The position numbers were made by a program, and so were the translations under genes. 36,207 nucleotides of DNA from a virus (taxonomy: Duplodnaviria > Heunggongvirae > Uroviricota > Caudoviricetes), in the IMG/VR virus record IMGVR_UViG_2541047897_000007, positions 1 to 36,207 of that record. One strand, given 5' to 3'. Below, in pieces: positions 6,279 to 15,479 of this stretch; position 1 is the first letter of the stretch, and each line of letters begins with the position of its first letter. The notes below the pieces were generated by a model, which worked only from the letters and a program-made list of their open reading frames with translations, was not told where the DNA came from and searched no databases.

Positions 6279-9101
6279 ATGACGGCAGAGTACATCAGGG
6301 ACTGGCAACAACCGCGCCACGCAGTGGGGCGTGAAGGAACGGGGATCCCCGCTCCTGAATCCGCGCTTTCCTCCTGGCTGGATGCCTACCGGGTAGAGAA
6401 CGAGCGCCGCCAGGAAATGGCTGATGCGGCGTTCTCCGCCACGCCGCTGGGCAACCTGATTAATAAAAGCCTGGACGCACAGGAAAAACAGGACAAAACC
6501 ATCACACTGGCAGGAGACGCCAGAAAACAGGCACGCGGCGCAGTGGATGAAGCCATGACCTCGCTGCGCCTGCTGCCGTCCTATCTGCGCGATCCGCTTA
6601 TTCGCCACCTCTCCTTCCTGCGCAAAAAACAGGAAGCCGATCGCCGGAAAGGCAAAAAGAGCTGGCAGGCGGAACGCTATGCACGCGGAACCCTGCGCAA
6701 AATATTCGAACGTCTGGACCGCACCGATCACCGCTGGCTGACACCGGGTTATCGCTCCCTTGCCGGACGCGAACGCCTGGACGATTTGCTTTACCTGCCG
6801 CAGCTCAACAAACACCAGATACAGACGCTGGCCACCATGACGGCGGCGATGTTCAGCAGCACCTTCGAAAAACTCTGCGATGGCTTTGGCGCGACTGATG
6901 GCGAACTGACCATGGATGTAACGCTGAAGGCGTATCAGATGCTGGCCCGCATGGCGTTACACCTGCACGCCATGCCTCCACATTATGACGCACTGACAAC
7001 AGACAAAGACCGGAGGAACGAACCGGACACAGAGCTGCTGCCGGGCGCAATCCTTCGCCTGACCTGTGCGGAATGGTGGAAACGCAAACTGTGGCTGTTA
7101 CGTTGCGAGTGGAGAGAAGAACAACTCCGCGCCGCCTGTCTGGTTTCCAGAAAAACATCGCCCTATCTGAGCCAGGACGCGTTAAGCGAGTTTCGCGCAC
7201 AGCGCGAGAAAACACGCGATTTCCTGAAAAGTTTCATGCTGGAAAACGAAGACGGGTTCACGATTGATCTCGAGACAGTGTATTACGCGGGAGTAAGTAA
7301 CCCGGTTCACCGTAAGGCAGAAATGATGGCCACCATGAAGGGACTGGAACTTCTGGCCGAAGCCCGTGGCGACAGAGCGGTGTTTCTGACTGTCACCTGC
7401 CCGTCAAAATACCACGCAACAACGGAGAACGGTCATCCGAACCCCAAATGGAACGGGGCCACCATGCGCGACTCCAGCGATTACCTGGTTAACACGTTTT
7501 TTGCGGCGGTCCGCAAAAAACTGAACCGCGACGGCCTGCGCTGGTATGGCATCCGCACGGTGGAGCCTCACCATGACGGCACCGTGCACTGGCATATGAT
7601 GGTCTTTGCTCATCCGGAAGAAATCGACAGCATCGTGGCCATCACCCGCGATATTGCCATTCAGGAAGACCGCCACGAGCTGGGCAATGATATTACTCCG
7701 CGCTTTAAAGTGGAGTATGTCGACGGCTCAAAAGGCACACCAACCAGCTATATCGCGACCTACATCGGGAAAAACCTGGACAGCCGCGCCGTGGATGGCA
7801 TCGACCCGAAAACGGGCAAACCACGCGTTGACCACGAAACCGGAAAATCAATGGCCGAGAGCGTGGAGCGCGCCATCGGTTGGGCACGCCTTCACCGGGT
7901 CCGCCAGTTCCAGTTCTTTGGCATCCCCTCCCGTCAGGTGTGGCGTGAACTCCGCCGCCTTGCCAGCCAGATGGCACGCAACCCGGAAGGCCCGCAACGG
8001 CTGAAGGATGACGCAATGGATGCGGTACTCGCTGCCGCTGATGCCGGATGTTTTGCCACCTACATAGAGAAACAGGGCGGCGTACTTGTTCCACGCAAAG
8101 ACTACCTGATTCGCACCGCCTACGACCTCGCCGATGAGCTGAACGATTACGGCGAACAGAGTGTACAGATTTACGGGATCTGGTCACCACTCATCGGGGA
8201 ATCCTCCCGTGTGTGCACGCACCCGGATAACTGGAAGCTGGTAAGACGTAAACCGGAACAGGAAGGCAGCGCCCACGAAAATGGTTTTGACCTTCAGGGC
8301 GGCCCTGCCGCCCCTTGGACTCGTGGCAATAACTGTCCCCGTGTACAGGAAACGGACAACAACGGGACAGAACAGCCGGAAGAACGGCCAGCACCGTGGC
8401 CGCAGCTCCCTGACGGCGTTGAAGTGAACGAATGGATGCGCTCACTGAAACGGCACGAACGCCGGGCGCTGATGCGTTCGCTTCGTGACAAACAGGCAAA
8501 AAACAGCAGTGATGAAATGCAGAGCTGGACACAGAGCCGCAAACAGCAGCGGCCTTTGCCTGATAACCACGAATTACTCGCTAAAGAATGGCGGGAGTCT
8601 GCTGAATCTCTCGGCCTGCATATCGGTGAACAACAGATGCAGCACCTGTTACGGGGCGGCAGTCTGTACGTTGACGGCAGCATCATTGCACCGCAGGGAT
8701 TTGAAATTGTACGCAAACCGGATACCCGCCCGGACAGCCGAATCACGCAGCTCTGGCAGCGCCTGAGCCGTAATCACGGCGTAAGCAGCACGGAGATCCG
8801 CCATAACCCGGTCGCCAGCTATCTGGCGCAACTGGGGGCATCAGACCCTGAAGCCGCCGCACGCCTGGCATCCACACTTCAGCAGGACCAGAACACCATG
8901 AAAACACCCGTTACCGTGCTTTCTGACATGCTGCGCGCCATCCGCGACACAGAGCACGCACAGAGAATCAGTGAAACCACTGAACGCGCCCGCCGCAAAG
9001 CAGACCTGCTGCGGGGTGGCCTGACCATTGGAAACAAAAAACAGACAGAAACGGGATTCACAAATCCCGTAAATGAGCAAAAAACGCGCCGCGATATATG
9101 A
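6279..9101 (+). CDS. A: replication initiation endonuclease (P2 gpA-like, rolling-circle HUH nuclease)
   Basis: 940-aa ORF; HUH-type motif VHWHMMVFAH and tyrosine pair in SYIATYIGK; position after the early operon as in P2. Confidence 0.9.
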   Translation: MTAEYIRDWQQPRHAVGREGTGIPAPESALSSWLDAYRVENERRQEMADAAFSATPLGNLINKSLDAQEKQDKTITLAGDARKQARGAVDEAMTSLRLLPSYLRDPLIRHLSFLRKKQEADRRKGKKSWQAERYARGTLRKIFERLDRTDHRWLTPGYRSLAGRERLDDLLYLPQLNKHQIQTLATMTAAMFSSTFEKLCDGFGATDGELTMDVTLKAYQMLARMALHLHAMPPHYDALTTDKDRRNEPDTELLPGAILRLTCAEWWKRKLWLLRCEWREEQLRAACLVSRKTSPYLSQDALSEFRAQREKTRDFLKSFMLENEDGFTIDLETVYYAGVSNPVHRKAEMMATMKGLELLAEARGDRAVFLTVTCPSKYHATTENGHPNPKWNGATMRDSSDYLVNTFFAAVRKKLNRDGLRWYGIRTVEPHHDGTVHWHMMVFAHPEEIDSIVAITRDIAIQEDRHELGNDITPRFKVEYVDGSKGTPTSYIATYIGKNLDSRAVDGIDPKTGKPRVDHETGKSMAESVERAIGWARLHRVRQFQFFGIPSRQVWRELRRLASQMARNPEGPQRLKDDAMDAVLAAADAGCFATYIEKQGGVLVPRKDYLIRTAYDLADELNDYGEQSVQIYGIWSPLIGESSRVCTHPDNWKLVRRKPEQEGSAHENGFDLQGGPAAPWTRGNNCPRVQETDNNGTEQPEERPAPWPQLPDGVEVNEWMRSLKRHERRALMRSLRDKQAKNSSDEMQSWTQSRKQQRPLPDNHELLAKEWRESAESLGLHIGEQQMQHLLRGGSLYVDGSIIAPQGFEIVRKPDTRPDSRITQLWQRLSRNHGVSSTEIRHNPVASYLAQLGASDPEAAARLASTLQQDQNTMKTPVTVLSDMLRAIRDTEHAQRISETTERARRKADLLRGGLTIGNKKQTETGFTNPVNEQKTRRDI

Positions 9102-9146
9102 AGCGCGCATAAAACAGGCAAAAACGGGATTTCAGAATCCCGTAAA
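9049..9146. promoter_or_regulatory. two 25-bp dyad repeats, candidate centromere/operator for the downstream parMR-like operon
   Basis: aaacgggattcacaaatcccgtaaa (9049..9073) and aaacgggatttcagaatcccgtaaa (9122..9146), each an 8-bp-arm inverted repeat, spaced 73 bp; the first lies inside the 3' end of gene A. Confidence 0.4.
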
Positions 9147-9177
9147 CGATTAATTAATCAACATAAGGAAAAGCGAC

Positions 9178-10137
9178 ATGAAAATTTGTATCGATGACGG
9201 CTCCACCAACATCAAGCTGGCATGGACTGAGAACGGCGAACGCCGCAACGCCATCAGCCCAAACAGCTTCAAGTCGGAATGGTCTGCGCCGTTCGGTGGC
9301 ACGCAGCCCGCGAACTACATGCTTGATGGCGTGCGCTATGGTTTTGATCCGGTCAGCGATCGCTTTGTCCAGACGACCGACACGCAATACCAGTACAGCG
9401 ATGTGAATGTCATTGCCATTCATCACGCGCTGGTCAAATCAGGCATCACACCACAGGAAGTGGATGTGGTTGTCACCCTGCCACTGAGCGAATATTTCGA
9501 CACAAACGCACAGCCGGTCATGGCCAACATCAACCGCAAAAAAGCAAACGTCATGCGCCCGGTGGCGTACCAGAACGGAAAAGCATTCACTATCCGTAAC
9601 GTACGGGTTATGCCTGAATCCATTCCGGCTGGTTTTAAAGCACTGGCTGACATGAGTCCGTTTGAATCCCTGCTGATTGTGGATTTAGGCGGAACCACGC
9701 TGGATGTGGCAAAGGTTCAGGGACAACTGGCAGGTATCAGCCAGGTGTTTTGCGATCCACACGTAGGCGTTTCCCTGATGGCCGATGCCGTACTGTCGGT
9801 GATGGCCACTAACGGTATGCGTACCAGTCACCACATCGCCAATACCATTATCGAACATCGCCATGATGAAGCTTGGCTGCGCCAGCACATCCACAATGAC
9901 GCGCATTACGACAGCCTGATAGCGGTTATTCGTGAAAAGGAAGAAACACTGAAACAACGCGTGATCCGCGCGCTGGCGGGTTTTTCGGGTTACGGGCGGG
10001 TGATGGTTGTCGGTGGCGGGGCGGAGATTGTGGCACCCGCTATCCGCGAAGCCTGCGGAGTTAATGCGACTTTCATCGCGGACGGGGTGCCACAGTTTGC
10101 TCTGGTTAATGGGCTGTACGCAATGGACAAGGAGTAA
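9178..10137 (+). CDS. parM: ParM/StbA-like actin-type segregation ATPase
   Basis: 319-aa ORF; actin-fold motifs IDDGSTNIKL, IVDLGGTTLD and VVGGGAE; close match along its length to plasmid R1 ParM as recalled from memory. Confidence 0.85.
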   Translation: MKICIDDGSTNIKLAWTENGERRNAISPNSFKSEWSAPFGGTQPANYMLDGVRYGFDPVSDRFVQTTDTQYQYSDVNVIAIHHALVKSGITPQEVDVVVTLPLSEYFDTNAQPVMANINRKKANVMRPVAYQNGKAFTIRNVRVMPESIPAGFKALADMSPFESLLIVDLGGTTLDVAKVQGQLAGISQVFCDPHVGVSLMADAVLSVMATNGMRTSHHIANTIIEHRHDEAWLRQHIHNDAHYDSLIAVIREKEETLKQRVIRALAGFSGYGRVMVVGGGAEIVAPAIREACGVNATFIADGVPQFALVNGLYAMDKE

Positions 10138-10141
10138 ACCA

Positions 10142-10453
10142 ATGACGACACCAACCAGACGGATAAGTTTCTATCTGAAGCCCGCCGCCGTCAAGAACGA
10201 AGGCGAAGCATGCGCCTGGCTGGACAGCCTTACACCAGAAGCCCGCAAAAGTGGTCAACGTGTGGCTTTTCTGGCCGGACTGGCACTTATGAAAATTAAT
10301 CCGGCAGAGGCTTACCGACTGGCTGCATGGGCTGACGATGAAGCGTTATCCCTGACACAAACCAGGACAGAACGCCCCGTGTCACAGCCAGCACCAACCG
10401 CACAGATAACCAGTCAGATGGCCGGAAATATCCGGGCGTTATTTCCCGAATAA
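10142..10453 (+). CDS. parR: ParR-like centromere-binding adaptor (candidate)
   Basis: 103-aa product from the ATG at 10142 with AGGAG RBS; RRISFYLKP...AGLAL...LFPE resembles R1 ParR as recalled from memory; position directly after the parM-like gene. Confidence 0.55.
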   Translation: MTTPTRRISFYLKPAAVKNEGEACAWLDSLTPEARKSGQRVAFLAGLALMKINPAEAYRLAAWADDEALSLTQTRTERPVSQPAPTAQITSQMAGNIRALFPE

Positions 10454-10516
10454 CACAACATCAGGGCGCATCCGCCCTGATGACTTTAACCCGGGAACAT
10501 AAACAAGGGGGACACA

Positions 10517-10849
10517 ATGCAACACATTGACAGAGAAAAAGCGCAGCGACTGATTGAGCGGATGGAAGCGCTGGCGCAAGAAGAAAATGTCAACATCCAA
10601 AAAATAGCTGAATGTGGCCAGATAGTTCTTCGTCGTGAAAAAGACCTCAAACAACTGATGTCTGGCAAAACCAGCAAAACATGGGATTCAGGCGAGGAAA
10701 TGATTTATTGCAGCTTCTGCAATAAATCCCAGTACGAAGTCACAAAGGTGATTGCTGGACCGTCTGTTTACATCTGCAATGAGTGCGTGGATTTGTGCAA
10801 TGAAATTATCAGGAGAGAAGTGGCAGACAAAAAGGGAAAAAACACATGA
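10517..10849 (+). CDS. stand-alone ClpX-type C4 zinc-finger (ZBD) domain protein
   Basis: 110-aa ORF with strong RBS; C-terminal [38 protein letters not shown] is near-identical in pattern to the E. coli ClpX N-terminal zinc-binding domain, including the spacing of all four Cys; no AAA+ module follows. Confidence 0.75.
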
Positions 10850-11160
10850 ACAGAAAACAAAAACAAGAGTTGAAATACTTTTTACGTAAAGAAATTGCCA
10901 GGCTTGAAGATGCAGAATCACGATCATCAGAAATTCCGTTCGGAATGGATATCAACGACGCCCGTATGCTCCAGGCATACCGTATAGCTCAGGCTGCACT
11001 ACAGGCAAAACCGTCAGATGGACTGGTTAGAGCAGTACGTTTCTATGAACTGGTAAAGCGTGAGAATCCGCCAACCGAAACCGGAGCATGGAAAGACGCT
11101 GTTGACTGGGTGCTCAGAGAAGCTTGCCAGACTGTAAACATTGGTATCAAAGGAGAGTGA
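10846..11160 (+). CDS. hypothetical protein
   Basis: 104-aa ORF, start overlaps the upstream stop. Confidence 0.55.
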
Positions 11161-11162
11161 GA

Positions 11163-11654
11163 GTGCAGATTTCACCGGTTACTCTTCGTGTTGCGAAGGC
11201 ATTTATATCCAGACATCACCGACACAATAAACCCCCGGTGGGGCATAAATTCAGCATTGGTCTGAGAAATGATGCCGGAGAATTGATAGGTGTGGCGACA
11301 GCCGGTCGACCTGTTGCACGACATTTGGACGATGGATTAACGCTTGAAGTAAATCGCACATGTACCACAGGAGAACGCAACGCTAACAGCGCGCTTTATG
11401 GTGCTGTCTGGCGGGCAGCAAAAGCTATGGGTTATCAACGTTGTATTACGTACACCCGGGCAGATGAATCAGGAGCATCTCTTCGCGCAGCTGGTTTTGT
11501 TCGTGTGAAAGAGCTTCCTCCAAGAAAAAGCTGGGCGGAATCAAGCGTCGCCCTGCGGAGTAAACGCGATCCGGTCGGAAACGGTGGTGTTCCTCGTGTG
11601 CTCTGGGAAATCAGGAGAATGAGTACCACTGGCATTCGCATCAAAGGAGAGTGA
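11163..11654 (+). CDS. hypothetical protein (weak GNAT-like resemblance)
   Basis: GTG start at 11163 with AGGAG 6 nt upstream preferred over the overlapping ATG at 11124; 163 aa. Confidence 0.45.
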   Translation: MQISPVTLRVAKAFISRHHRHNKPPVGHKFSIGLRNDAGELIGVATAGRPVARHLDDGLTLEVNRTCTTGERNANSALYGAVWRAAKAMGYQRCITYTRADESGASLRAAGFVRVKELPPRKSWAESSVALRSKRDPVGNGGVPRVLWEIRRMSTTGIRIKGE

Positions 11655-11655
11655 T

Positions 11656-11919
11656 ATGGCAACTTTAACAAAAAAAGAACGGGCATGGTTGAATGAATTA
11701 CAGGACGTTCTTGATCGCTGCCCATCACCGAAAAAAATTGGTTTTTACACCATTGGCGATAAAAGCATTTACCTGTATGACCTGCGCCGCATGGATGAAA
11801 TCATGGAGGCTCTTGATAATCGTTCGTCAATGGATTGGTGTGTTGCTGTTCATGATATGAATGCAGGGTTTGATGAAAAGATTTTGTTCCCCTCATCAGT
11901 TGAAAGCACAGCAGGATAA
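11656..11919 (+). CDS. hypothetical protein
   Basis: 87-aa ORF starting 2 nt after the upstream stop, preceded by the same aaaggagagtga junction seen at 11149..11160. Confidence 0.55.
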   Translation: MATLTKKERAWLNELQDVLDRCPSPKKIGFYTIGDKSIYLYDLRRMDEIMEALDNRSSMDWCVAVHDMNAGFDEKILFPSSVESTAG

Positions 11920-11929
11920 GGACTAACAC

Positions 11930-12190
11930 ATGACAACTTTCACCGACAAAGAACTGATTAAAGAAATCAAAGAGCGCATAGGCAGCCTGGACGTTCGAGA
12001 CAATATTGAGCGCCGTGCTTATGAAATTGCACTGGCATCACTGGAAGCAGAGCCAGTAGCATGGATGCATGTAAATAACGGCATCGGAATACCAGCAATA
12101 ACAAGGAGTAAAGAGGTTGCAGAGAGTTGGTTATCAAAAGGCTGGTATGTCCAACCCTTGCATCTAGCCCAGCCTGCATCAAAGCTATAG
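11930..12190 (+). CDS. hypothetical protein
   Basis: 86-aa ORF with RBS aggact; last gene of the island. Confidence 0.55.
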   Translation: MTTFTDKELIKEIKERIGSLDVRDNIERRAYEIALASLEAEPVAWMHVNNGIGIPAITRSKEVAESWLSKGWYVQPLHLAQPASKL

Positions 12191-12200
12191 AAATGAGCCA

Positions 12201-12229
12201 AAACGCCCTCTTCCAGGGCGTTTATTTTA
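12201..12229 (+). terminator. rho-independent terminator ending the early/accessory operon
   Basis: aaacgccct-cttcc-agggcgttt hairpin followed by a T-rich tract. Confidence 0.55.
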
Positions 12230-12681
12230 ATGCACAATAGTGCACAAATTTGCACAATTTTTTTGAACGACTTTTTGCCCTTCCGGCCCCCGTGGCGGCT
12301 GGATCCGTCAAGGATCCGTGCGTGCACAAAAAAACGCGTTTTTTCTGCGCGCAGGTGACGGGGGAACAGCCCGCGTTTCAGGGGGTAAATAGCGTTCCCT
12401 TAACGATGTCGCAGCGACACGACAGAATGGCCGTATTTCTCACGCTGAGCGTGAAAAATACGTGAGGGATTCTGATTTGATGGGGTGAAAGGTAAGGCCG
12501 TCAAAATCGCACTGAGGCGGCGAGAACATGCAGTCAACGCGGTGGGATTGCGTAAGAGTCTGACCGTCGATGGTGGCGATAAACTGGAAGGCGTCGTGAA
12601 ATTATCTGACTGATACAGGAGCTGGAGAGTCGGGGCATAAATTTTTTATGCCCCGGCGAAGCAGCAGACAAGCGAAGCGCG

Positions 12682-13728
12682 TCAGGATGTGGGCTGGATG
12701 TCTAACAGTGCGTAAGGGTTAAAGCGGATCACCTCTTCGCCAAGCCAGTCATTGATGTGCTTCATGGCCTCCATGACGGGCATCAGCTCGTTAATTGCGT
12801 AAACCCGCGCGGCCTTCTCCACATCACCAAACGCACTTTTTTCACCCGGCATCGCCCCCATCAGTTGCGGCGGAACGCGGTGCGCAGCCAGCACATCATC
12901 ACGGGATGCCGCCTTAACATTCATGAACTCATCCTTTGCGGTGATCTGCTGGAACGGCAAAATTTGCACCCCCTCTTTGCCCCCGTTGGGCGCATGAATG
13001 AGCACGTTTTTAAACGCACCACCACCACGCGCACCCTGTAGCGTTTCTTTCAGGGAGTCCATGCTTTCGCGGTTTACCTGCGCTGCACCGATGTAGATGA
13101 TGCACCCGGCGTGGGATCCGTTGTCGTAGTACAGTTTTCTGAACATGTCCGCCGAATGAGACAGGCTGGCCGAGAGTAATGCGCCGAGATATTCCGGCAT
13201 GCCGTAGATTTCCTGATTAATATCCGGATTCATCAGGTGACACACTTTGCCTGGGCGAAACTGAAACGCATCCTTGCCATCCTGCACATACCACCATGAT
13301 TCAAGATCGCTTCCGCGTCGCATGTATTTCGCCAGTGCGTGCCGTAATTTAAGCGGTTCGCCGAGCATATTGCTCCGAAGCTCAAGGAATGCGTTACCGA
13401 ACACAAACCAGTCCAGCGCCAGCGCCGAGAAATCCTGCCGGGAAAGCAGCGGGTGCGGGATGTAGCAACCGAGTAATACATTGCGCTTAAAGTAAAGCGC
13501 AGACTGATGCCAGGACGTTTGCCGGGCAGCTCTTGCCAGACCGTACCAGTCCACCGGGGTTTCATACCACCGCCCGTTATCAGCACAGTACATATTGTCC
13601 AGCAGATCATGCCCGGTCAGGCGATAAGGACCATCAAATGTGAATGCACTGAGCGATGATTCTTTCCTGAGCGCATCAGCGAGATCAATGCGTGAACTCA
13701 TGCGCACTTTTTTATTTTTTCTGCTCAT
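12682..13728 (-). CDS. Q: portal protein (P2 gpQ-like)
   Basis: 348-aa ORF; size and position match P2 Q, paired with the terminase ATPase gene directly upstream. Confidence 0.85.
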   Translation of the reverse strand: MSRKNKKVRMSSRIDLADALRKESSLSAFTFDGPYRLTGHDLLDNMYCADNGRWYETPVDWYGLARAARQTSWHQSALYFKRNVLLGCYIPHPLLSRQDFSALALDWFVFGNAFLELRSNMLGEPLKLRHALAKYMRRGSDLESWWYVQDGKDAFQFRPGKVCHLMNPDINQEIYGMPEYLGALLSASLSHSADMFRKLYYDNGSHAGCIIYIGAAQVNRESMDSLKETLQGARGGGAFKNVLIHAPNGGKEGVQILPFQQITAKDEFMNVKAASRDDVLAAHRVPPQLMGAMPGEKSAFGDVEKAARVYAINELMPVMEAMKHINDWLGEEVIRFNPYALLDIQPTS

Positions 13729-15479
13729 CAGAACTCCATAACCGTGAAACGCTCGTTTTCTCCTTCGCCGCCAATCGGTTCGTTAATGACAGCAAGCATG
13801 GTTGCCCACGCAAGGTCGCCGTGGCTGATCCCCCTCGCGCGGTCCGTTTCGTAAGTGATAAAGCCGCCCGGTGTTTTCACCTTACGCACGGCGTTAAAGG
13901 CCGCGACCAGCTCGCGTTCGGCGCGATCGTATTCCCACCGCCCGGCACGCATTATTTGCAGCATTTTCAGTACCAGCGACCGTTTTGATGACAGCGTGAA
14001 GGTGTACGGAATAGCAGCAGGGAAAAAACGTTTCACTATCTGATAAACAGCCTCCCCGTTCCCGCCCGTCACATCAATGCCGATGTGTTCCACGTTGTAG
14101 CGATACGTGAACTCTTCAATGACTCTGGCCTGTTCTTCAAACTCCAGCCCCTGAACGCGTCGCGTCTCCACCGTTCGAAAACGGCCACCAGGAACAGCCG
14201 GAGGAACCACCACGGACACAGCGCCGCTGTCGCCGTTGCCACTGCTGCCGTTTGCGTCATACCCAATCCATACCGGACGATTCCCCATCGGGCGGGGAGC
14301 AAAAGGTTTCCAGTCTTTCCAGTCGTCGTATCCGTCAACACCGCAGCCAATCAGGATATTCAGGTTAAATGCCGATTCCCCTTCGCGAACAAACTCACAC
14401 ATATAGAGATTGAGGAACTCGTCTTCGGTATTTTCATCACGAATTTCGTCGATATCGGTGTGTTTCCAGCCGTGATTAACCACATCTTCCAGCGTGACAA
14501 TTTGCCGCCACGTCCGGTCAGGGCAGATAAGCCCGTTATGCAGCGTTTTCCAGTCCACAGAAAAACGCTGGCGTTTATGCGAGGCCTTTTTCTCGTTCCA
14601 GCGGTCGCCGTTCCAGTAGGCGTATGCCTCGTGCGTTTCGGTGGATGGCGTGGAGAAGTAGGTGCGCCGCAGTCCGCTGAGGGTTGCCATAGCGCCAGCC
14701 ACCTTGCGCAGTTCAGCAAAGCGACTGACCCAGAAAAATTCATCAAAATAAAAATTGCCCGTATAGGACTGTGCCGACGCAGCAGAAGTGCCGAGAAAAT
14801 GCAGCTCTGCGCCGTTGGAGAGGATGATTTTATCGCCCCCTTTCAGCTCCACATCAACTTCAGCTGCGGCCTTCTGAATAATGCTTTTAAACTGGAACGC
14901 CTGACGACGCGACGCAGACAAAAAAATCTGGTTACGCTGGTAAGGTTGCGCCACATCGTCACGCAGCGCCATCAGCAGTGCTTCCTGTGCAAAATACCAG
15001 GTCGCCCCAATCTGTCGGGATTTCAGGATCATCCTGTTACGTATCCCGGCTTCCCTGCAAAGGGTCAGGGAGTCAAACCAGCCCCGCTGATGCCACTCCA
15101 GCCTGCTGATGATTTTTTCCCGCAGTGCGGCAATCTGTTCCGGCGTGAAATGATTTTTGAGTTTTTTCGCCCGGCCTTTCTTTCCTGCGGCCATCACATC
15201 CGGCTGGCCATCATGTAGCTTTTTAAGCTGCCGGGTCAGCAGGTCTATTTCCTTAAAGTCACCGCCTGTTTTATTCTGTTTTTCAGTAAGCTGGATGAGG
15301 CGCGCATCGATGGACTGCGTGACACGCTGCACGGGTGGCGTTTCATCCCACTGGTCACGTTTTTTCCACGCATAAATCGTGTTCGGGTTTATTCCCATCA
15401 GACGTGATATTTCTGCGGGCGGATAACCCTGCCAGTAAAGTTGCCGCGCACGCTGGCGCACAAAAGCGTCCTGAATCAT
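13728..15479 (-). CDS. P: terminase large (ATPase) subunit (P2 gpP-like)
   Basis: 583-aa ORF upstream of Q on the same strand and divergent from the capsid operon; size matches P2 P. Confidence 0.85.
   Translation of the reverse strand: MIQDAFVRQRARQLYWQGYPPAEISRLMGINPNTIYAWKKRDQWDETPPVQRVTQSIDARLIQLTEKQNKTGGDFKEIDLLTRQLKKLHDGQPDVMAAGKKGRAKKLKNHFTPEQIAALREKIISRLEWHQRGWFDSLTLCREAGIRNRMILKSRQIGATWYFAQEALLMALRDDVAQPYQRNQIFLSASRRQAFQFKSIIQKAAAEVDVELKGGDKIILSNGAELHFLGTSAASAQSYTGNFYFDEFFWVSRFAELRKVAGAMATLSGLRRTYFSTPSTETHEAYAYWNGDRWNEKKASHKRQRFSVDWKTLHNGLICPDRTWRQIVTLEDVVNHGWKHTDIDEIRDENTEDEFLNLYMCEFVREGESAFNLNILIGCGVDGYDDWKDWKPFAPRPMGNRPVWIGYDANGSSGNGDSGAVSVVVPPAVPGGRFRTVETRRVQGLEFEEQARVIEEFTYRYNVEHIGIDVTGGNGEAVYQIVKRFFPAAIPYTFTLSSKRSLVLKMLQIMRAGRWEYDRAERELVAAFNAVRKVKTPGGFITYETDRARGISHGDLAWATMLAVINEPIGGEGENERFTVMEF

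Follow-up and report, generated by a model that had tools for sequence, protein, structure and literature searches.

The window analysed here, 36,207 nt of DNA (positions 1 to 36,207 of the IMG/VR record IMGVR_UViG_2541047897_000007), is a P88-like prophage (Xuanwuvirus, Peduoviridae), a near-identical copy of which occurs in Escherichia coli UTI89 and NU14. On its + strand, a gene of the XF1762 family encoding 163 amino acids (aa), which starts with GTG (11163..11654; NCBIfam NF045478), is bracketed by two copies of a 15-nt string, ATCAAAGGAGAGTGA. These are probably two copies of a conserved 3′ boundary of ea22-family genes, made up of a coding tail, a Shine-Dalgarno sequence and a stop codon, which allows gene cassettes to be exchanged in register. 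Such a block would finish the upstream open reading frame (ORF; …GIRIKGE), supply the Shine-Dalgarno sequence of the next gene and provide a stop codon 1-2 nt before the next start, three roles that together would give translational coupling, and it ends many otherwise unrelated genes that belong to early accessory operons in prophages of the lambdoid, P22-like and P88-like (Peduoviridae) types. A crossover within the block would leave both ORFs and downstream translation intact, so that cassettes could be gained, lost and replaced precisely there. In the window, an XF1762 gene with an acquired Ea22 tail would have come to lie between a 104-aa Ea22-type gene (10846..11160) and an 87-aa gene (11656..11919), which would place the two copies 494 nt apart.

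The two exact copies are found at 11146-11160 and 11640-11654 on the + strand, and no third copy is present in the window with up to two mismatches allowed. The expectation from shuffled sequences is 0.02, and two or more copies occurred in none of 100 shuffles. An earlier note on this DNA had pointed out that two neighbouring proteins end in IKGE and hand off to the next start through the same string, and both copies are indeed exact, in-frame ORF ends, …VNIGIKGE* for the 104-aa protein and …TGIRIKGE* for the 163-aa protein. By sequence comparison, the first junction, ATTGGT-ATCAAAGGAGAGTGA (11140..11160), comprises the codons IGIKGE, the Shine-Dalgarno sequence AAAGGAG and TGA, and the second is ATTCGC-ATCAAAGGAGAGTGA (11634-11654). 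The extended forms, ATTGGTATCAAAGGAGAGTGA and ATTCGCATCAAAGGAGAGTGA, are equal at 19 of 21 positions, and the likeness over 37 nt is 78%; the copies are different alleles (VNIG-IKGE and TGIR-IKGE) that are unrelated farther upstream. The next start codons are GTG at 11163, 2 nt past the first TGA, and ATG at 11656, 1 nt past the second. In both copies AAAGGAG forms a strong Shine-Dalgarno sequence (−9.1 kcal/mol for its duplex with the 16S 3′ end) and lies 6-7 nt ahead of the start codon, which by sequence is the layout of a translationally coupled junction, suggesting that it drives the coupled translation of the next gene. No inverted repeats or hairpin were seen at either copy.

The origin of the string could be deduced from phage lambda, whose ea22 gene (NC_001416, 29847-30395, complement) ends in …gctggcattcgcATCAAAGGAGAGTGA, the 15-mer being its literal 3′ end. 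An exact scan of IMG/VR (matches from 120 contigs), together with the loci already collected, gave at least 133 junctions with the 15-mer, a sample biased to exact matches, and the string is thus present at many other cargo boundaries, where the earlier note had proposed to search for it. Among the matches listed, 125 are in Ea22-like, XF1762 or HNH-AP2 genes: 113 end Ead/Ea22-like genes, whose representatives score 2e-27 to 8e-36 against PF13935, 11 end XF1762 genes and one ends an HNH-AP2 endonuclease gene. The other eight resemble chance matches, most of them being in unrelated contigs. Conservation covers 15-27 nt, (GCY GGC ATT CGC) ATC AAA GGA GAG TGA, and in its full form of 24-27 nt the block encodes AGIRIKGE*. 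Across the 125 listed junctions, at least nine unrelated sequences, corresponding to different C-terminal domains, lie directly 5′ of the block, more than 20 gene clusters lie directly 3′ of it, and ATG or GTG follows 1-2 nt past the TGA in 123 cases. The block is therefore common to genomes that are unrelated on both flanks, which is the mark of a boundary sequence. A second sample, taken against the exact-match bias, consisted of 80 Ea22-like genes picked by N-terminal homology to lambda Ea22; the exact 15-mer ends 35 of them, and about four more carry near variants. More than 590 Ea22-array loci are present in IMG/VR. In this sample the final five codons show almost no synonymous change next to upstream domains that are unrelated, indicating conservation at the nucleotide level.

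Two further observations concern the spread of the tail. The HNH-AP2 endonuclease gene (in L124) is free-standing and ends in …HGVAGIRIKGE*, which makes it a second non-Ea22 bearer of the Ea22 tail, and a nuclease in Ea22 arrays could supply double-strand breaks for exchange. A wider scan of genome contigs with the lambda-type tail returned mostly tiny (~1 kb) or ~48.4-48.5-kb contigs (L474-L513) in assemblies of Streptococcus, Streptomyces, Pseudomonas, Shewanella, Bacillus and others (GTDB representative genomes); these are most likely lambda DNA contamination, and the scan is uninformative on taxonomic range.

The close relatives of the window provide an empty site. A comparison with relatives without the 163-aa gene, proposed in the earlier note, gives the single junction that it had asked to look for: in the P88-like prophages L228 and L229 (IMG/VR loci), with flanks ~96% identical, the 104-aa gene is followed directly by the 87-aa gene through one copy (…attggcATCAAAGGAGAGTGAtATG… / …attggcATCAAAGGAGAGTGAtATGgcaac…). 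The unit missing from both is 494 bp long (11161..11654, + strand) and consists of the XF1762 gene and one junction copy. In an alignment with L228, window positions 9346-11160 and 11633-11923 are both 96-97% identical to it, and the two flanks share 22 nt of L228, which is exactly the repeat; the overlap would be compatible with recombination inside the block. The same pattern is seen among P88-like prophages, with flanks 96-97% identical to the window (left to 11155-11160, right from 11633-11652) and a variable middle. The slot holds XF1762 in the window and in PhiR44_2, a 65-aa gene plus DUF4014 in L125, an Ea22-like gene (146 aa in L227, with related copies in L126/L127) whose 5′ end matches an 86-aa ORF farther downstream in the window, a 95-aa gene in L212 and L213, and a 69-aa gene in L230-L233. 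In P88 and L215-L222 it is deleted, and the 104-aa ORF is fused to the last 8 codons of the 86-aa ORF; P88 (L001 3147-3185) is without window 11157-12163, and the 104-aa ORF runs via ATCAAAGGAGAc into LAQPASKL*, giving a 112-aa fusion. In five independent arrangements, seen in P88, L125, L126/L127 and L228, homology breaks off at 11155-11160 and is regained at 11633-11652, and the mosaic breakpoints of close relatives thus fall on the repeat.

The conserved right flank of the slot, formed by the 87-aa gene (phrog_1714), leads to the same picture. In 80 loci this gene is preceded by at least five different gene ends, most of them ending in AAAGGAGAGTGAtATG: DUF4014 in 27, Ea22-like genes with …HGKGE* in 26, an XF1762-type tail in 16 and a lambda-type tail in ~10. 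An artificial empty-site query of 5,426 E. coli genomes found no direct join of the 104-aa and 87-aa genes among the 40 records listed, with 11 more of at least 80% coverage left out; all 40 have inserts, with total spans of 1074, 995-996 or 1022 nt. The junction itself can vary, and its stop is lost in L125 (1801-1836), L214 and L223-L226 (ATCAAGGGAGGGGGA or GAGGGA), where the 104-aa homologue is extended by 8 or 37 codons and overlaps the next gene.

These data modify the idea, put forward in the earlier note, of a cassette insertion scar. The cassette unit stands, given the 494-bp difference and the empty site; the scar does not, since the repeat is a pre-existing 3′ end of ea22-family genes, including lambda ea22. 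Likewise, the repeat is not the trace of one insertion, as the two copies are different alleles, a deletion is equally possible and at least five other cassettes occupy the same slot in sister prophages, which makes it a generic exchange point. The lineage of the window may have gained the cassette, as opposed to its loss in sister lineages, and a deletion between the repeats could equally account for the 494 bp; a crossover within the 15-mer would leave an identical sequence in both cases, so that the junction carries no sign of the direction.

The protein encoded by the cassette matches NCBIfam NF045478 (XF1762) at 1e-60 and 203.7 bits over residues 3-136 (cut-off 50) and phrog_1384, 'Mom-like DNA modification protein', at 1.2e-41 over residues 1-128. 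With the Pfam Mom profile (PF25680) it reaches 22.1 bits against a gathering cut-off of 27.1, with profile positions 3-126 of 202 aligned, and precomputed PF25680 matches exist for some of its close homologues. The cargo can therefore be assigned to the XF1762 family (Mom-like, GNAT-related), with a putative role in DNA modification. Its conserved core spans ~11163-11618 and ends in …RVLWEIRR, and the tail MSTTGIRIKGE occupies 11619-11654. Among ~110 XF1762 homologues, the core reaches …GNGGV.RVLWEIR(R), beyond which the sequences diverge; most end 1-4 residues past the core (RRGL, RRMK, RA), and Ea22-like tails are found in few. On a tree of the core, the tailed members are placed at five or more points among tail-less relatives, and every tail is different. 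The Salmonella phage VSe13 has an Ead/Ea22-like gene followed directly by the 87-aa gene, and its homology to the window begins at 11628, with ggcattcgcATCAAAGGAGAGTGAtatggcaac identical in both, indicating that the last ~27 nt of the 163-aa gene (11628..11654, + strand), which include the second junction copy with its Shine-Dalgarno sequence and stop before the ATG at 11656, are Ea22-derived. The last 8-11 codons of the 163-aa gene are accordingly a borrowed Ea22 tail, foreign to the XF1762 family. The suggestion that the gene carries its own copy of the junction is thus borne out, its tail being identical to Ea22 tails.

The left-hand copy also belongs to the Ea22 family. The C-terminal ~47 residues of the 104-aa protein (phrog_660, 1.5e-27; phrog_26213, 1.5e-28) are a variant of the Ea22-family C-terminal domain (…AVRFYE.VKRENPP…VNIGIKGE), and in other phages this block is joined to PF13935 Ead_Ea22 N-termini (2e-27 to 8e-36). 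A Pfam search of the 104-aa protein gave no match, and the PF13935 profile matched neither the 104-aa nor the 163-aa protein, the resemblance being confined to the C-terminal block and the tail, respectively.

Several side observations on the XF1762 gene can be added. Distant XF1762 proteins (P0058, P0074, P0103, P0105, P0040, P0056 and P0081) end in …WEIR-AAG, RRAA, RCAG or RVAGHN, and the family may thus have an 'R-A-A-G' ending of its own, which may have been the source of microhomology with the Ea22 'RAAGI…' tail. The start codon is GTG (11163) in the window and ATG in PhiR44_2 and most relatives, and the UTI89 protein record (P0001, 165 aa) takes as its start an upstream in-frame GTG (11157) that shares bases with the stop of the 104-aa gene. 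In L208, a prophage that is otherwise identical, XF1762 is frameshifted and its ORF ends after 35 aa, which suggests that the cargo is dispensable. Kapi1-type phages (L003 1940-2000; L102) have an XF1762 gene with different first 10 codons (MVISPITLKAAQ…), of the Klebsiella/Enterobacter type; their breakpoint lies inside the gene, at window 11193, and a degenerate tail, gctggcatcaaggag(t/g)ag, precedes the gene.

The arrangement is not confined to the window. In XF1762 genes of Enterobacter, Salmonella and Klebsiella prophages, which lie downstream of Ea22-like genes, a local tail is present on both flanks (L251-L257, with taxa assigned from source names only; L347 6130-6650). The local tail is GGCATCAAATTGCAGATCGAGGGGGAGTGA in Enterobacter (30 nt exact), GGCATCCAGGTTATCGAAGGAGAAG in Salmonella (25 nt exact) and GCCGCTGGCATCAAGGTGGAGG in Klebsiella (22 nt exact). 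The tail peptides differ by genus (GIRIKGE, GIKVEAE, GIKLQIEGE and GIQVIEGEGQ) and keep a common pattern, and every local tail is the common end of many Ea22-like genes with varied domains and downstream genes; the Klebsiella tail, for example, was counted at 121 junctions with 73 distinct upstream 24-mers and 35 downstream clusters. Since the same layout recurs in several genera, the 'Ea22 tail / cargo / same tail' architecture is a general one, and within a phage population the tail undergoes concerted evolution. Elsewhere, XF1762 has genes for defence or modification as its neighbours: KwaA/KwaB (Kiwa) adjoin it in Klebsiella prophages (L251-L253 3296-4881) and a 664-aa DNA methylase is encoded two genes downstream in Salmonella (L254 3248-5242).

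An established proposal attributes lambdoid mosaicism to exchange at short conserved flanking sequences (PMC2327257, PMC3029335). Phage single-strand-annealing recombinases can work with homology that is short or diverged, and RecET uses 5-13 bp at low frequency (PMC2327257). We infer that the block itself is the short homology used by RecA or Red/RecT-type recombinases, beyond merely surviving selection. A number of points weigh against this. P88-like phages are not known to encode a Red-like recombinase. The exact block, at 15-27 nt, is at or below the ~30 bp minimum of homology for Red-beta (PMC3945230). The IMG/VR contigs are highly redundant E. coli prophages, and the junction counts therefore exceed those of independent events; the XF1762 core tree was built by neighbour joining without bootstraps; and the occurrence of the same local tail on both XF1762 flanks in four genera is not simply explained by homology-driven exchange alone. 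The evidence comes from sequence comparison, and breakpoints at gene ends are also expected from selection acting on random illegitimate joints.

This last point leads to the strongest alternative, a less probable one that nevertheless deserves weight, in which illegitimate joints form anywhere and the survivors are those at gene ends with a ribosome-binding site; the tail would then reflect descent from Ea22 and the constraint on the ribosome-binding site, with no part as a recombination substrate. Joints without shared sequence do occur in the same operon, as at the right joint of P88 (12164), the 5′ breakpoint of XF1762 in Kapi1 (11193) and the DUF4014-to-87-aa junction, which ends in …aaggaaaacTGAtATG, and most mosaic boundaries have no conserved sequences (PMC3029335, PMC2327257). 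Selection alone, however, has to account for the last five codons being near-invariant at synonymous sites beside unrelated C-terminal domains, for empty-site flank alignments that overlap by exactly the repeat, and for a tail grafted at the same position onto the non-Ea22 genes XF1762 and HNH-AP2, all of which would be more easily produced by crossovers within the block.

It is unlikely that the conservation lies in the peptide, as a portable C-terminal tag (AGI-x-hydrophobic-x…E-G-E, strand-like) for a shared partner, assembly or turnover. Such a role would fit tails that differ between genera and keep their pattern, the local tail that XF1762 has in each of four genera, and the presence of a ClpX zinc-finger protein gene in the same arrays. 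However, most XF1762 homologues are tail-less, so the enzyme has no need of a tail; purine-rich Shine-Dalgarno sequences translate to K/E/G-rich ends in any case; GCTGGCATC is conserved at synonymous sites across genera; and the nuclear magnetic resonance paper on the lambda Ea22 C-terminal domain is silent on the last residues in the passages searched (PMC10834534). Doubtful to a similar degree is a broader proposal, in which the tail would go beyond passive homology and, as a dedicated host-lineage-specific signal for cassette exchange or as a peptide tag that can be moved between C-termini, would determine which genes belong to an 'Ea22 array'. If true, XF1762/Mom-like and HNH-AP2 enzymes would have been recruited repeatedly by acquiring the local tail, and the 22-30-nt local tail on both sides of XF1762 in E. 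coli, Klebsiella, Enterobacter and Salmonella would be explained despite its differences between these genera.

Insertion by a dedicated enzyme, with the repeats as a target-site duplication or as att/attC-like sites, is very improbable. Direct repeats bracket the cassette, an empty site exists and the pattern recurs with different repeat sequences in four genera; against this, lambda ea22 and hundreds of genes without an adjacent cassette already carry the repeat, the two copies are different alleles, the junctions have no terminal inverted repeats, hairpin or Rfam match, and the 494-bp unit has XF1762 as its only ORF, with no transposase or integrase. A transposon target-site duplication was rejected on these grounds: no inverted repeats, no transposase, a repeat that was widespread beforehand and copies that are different alleles. 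Hardly any room is left for coincidence, that is, for two genes independently ending in a strong Shine-Dalgarno sequence and TGA, since 10 of the 15 nt (AAAGGAG, TGA) are indeed functionally constrained but the shuffle expectation contradicts it, the identity goes on upstream (ATT.G.), and the XF1762 tail equals Ea22 tails over 27 nt where XF1762 homologues elsewhere end otherwise.

The exchange of cassettes at an ea22-type boundary is thus our preferred reading, and the surrounding genes provide its setting. On the + strand, the replication gene (6279-9101) is followed by a ParM-like gene and a Plasmid_stab_B gene, and then by the gene of the 110-aa ClpX zinc-finger protein (10517-10849), which precedes the 104-aa gene. 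Beyond the 87-aa gene lies the 86-aa ORF (11930..12190; phrog_5117, phrog_660), an Ea22-like N-terminal fragment (…IALASLEAEP…) whose first 128 nt (11930-12057) show 93.8% identity with the 5′ end of the Ea22-like gene in the first slot of L126/L127. It lies in a second variable slot (~11924-12215), as homology to PhiR44_2, L126 and L228 is lost at 11923 and regained at 12216. A terminator-like hairpin with a T-run (12201..12223, + strand) closes the accessory operon, and the portal gene follows on the other strand. Inside the cassette, only weak pattern matches to promoters or terminators were found on the + strand, the hairpin at 12201-12223 being the sole convincing terminator, and an Rfam search of 10400-12700 (E ≤ 1) gave no structured RNA. 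A homologue of the 110-aa ClpX zinc-finger protein is encoded directly 3′ of an Ea22 tail in the unclassified IMG/VR contigs L077 and L010; from this, the whole stretch that begins with the ClpX zinc-finger gene and ends with the 86-aa ORF looks imported from a lambdoid exo-xis-type gene pool into a P2-family prophage.

The system offers a clean, well-populated natural example for the old argument of whether the joints of phage mosaics are made at short conserved boundary sequences or arise anywhere, with selection as a later filter. Hundreds of junctions across lambdoid, P22-like and P2-family phages are marked by one 15-27-nt element, the end of lambda ea22, which has genus-specific versions and has been grafted onto unrelated cargo, including a Mom-like gene for putative DNA modification. 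This spread across families, together with the grafting, makes it a convenient substrate for direct tests of short-homology exchange, and when E. coli prophages are annotated, the tail can serve as a practical marker of cassette slots.

The cassette and its boundary can be compared with several known systems. A moron, in the concept of Hendrix and Juhala, is an accessory gene with its own promoter and terminator. Like morons, the cassette here is an accessory gene that otherwise similar prophages have or lack between conserved neighbours; unlike them, it is without its own promoter or terminator and is predicted to be translationally coupled within an operon, and a classical moron was rejected for want of a convincing promoter or terminator inside the cassette on the + strand. 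Integron gene cassettes (attC x attI) also form arrays of promoter-less cassettes that each end in a recognisable repeat; here, however, the repeats are coding sequence, and integron cassettes were rejected in the absence of an attC imperfect palindrome and of an IntI integrase in 9000-14000. With respect to phage Mu Mom, the cargo scores far above the XF1762_fam cut-off and matches the PHROG 'Mom-like DNA modification protein', and it lies below the Pfam Mom gathering score, with 163 aa compared to a profile of 202 positions, of which 3-126 are aligned. No paper mentioning XF1762 was found in the literature searched. With the lambda ea22 family, the junctions share the 15-mer as a 3′ end and, in most cases, PF13935 N-termini with swapped C-terminal domains; unlike lambda ea22, the two genes that end in the repeat here are not full Ea22 genes, the 104-aa gene having only the C-terminal block and the 163-aa gene being of an unrelated enzyme family that bears the tail. 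The mosaic organisation of the Ead_Ea22 family (PF13935), including mosaicism of its C-terminal domain, is described in PMC10834534, and no mention of the constant tail was found in the passages searched there or in the other literature passages searched.

The closest relatives of the element are linker sequences. The modular theory of Susskind and Botstein, and the 2001 work of Clark et al. on HK620, are said to place short conserved boundary ('linker') sequences at the junctions of lambdoid modules. The idea of boundary sequences at phage module junctions is summarised in PMC3029335 and PMC2327257. As with linkers, the element here is short, conserved between unrelated flanks and located at a gene boundary, breakpoints coincide with it, and an indel lies between two of its copies. 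Unlike linkers, it forms part of a coding end, where it also provides the Shine-Dalgarno sequence and the stop, it goes with a single gene family (ea22) and has host-genus-specific versions, and it occurs outside lambdoid phages, in a P2-family (P88-like) prophage. Phage boundary sequences as a class and the mosaic ea22 family (PMC10834534) are already known; the constant tail, its role as the boundary of a cassette in a P2-family prophage, its presence as a graft on XF1762 and HNH genes and its covarying genus-specific versions appear to be undescribed in the literature passages searched. Collectively, we can conclude that the repeat, although real, is an ordinary example of the boundary sequences of phage mosaics and reveals no system of a new kind.

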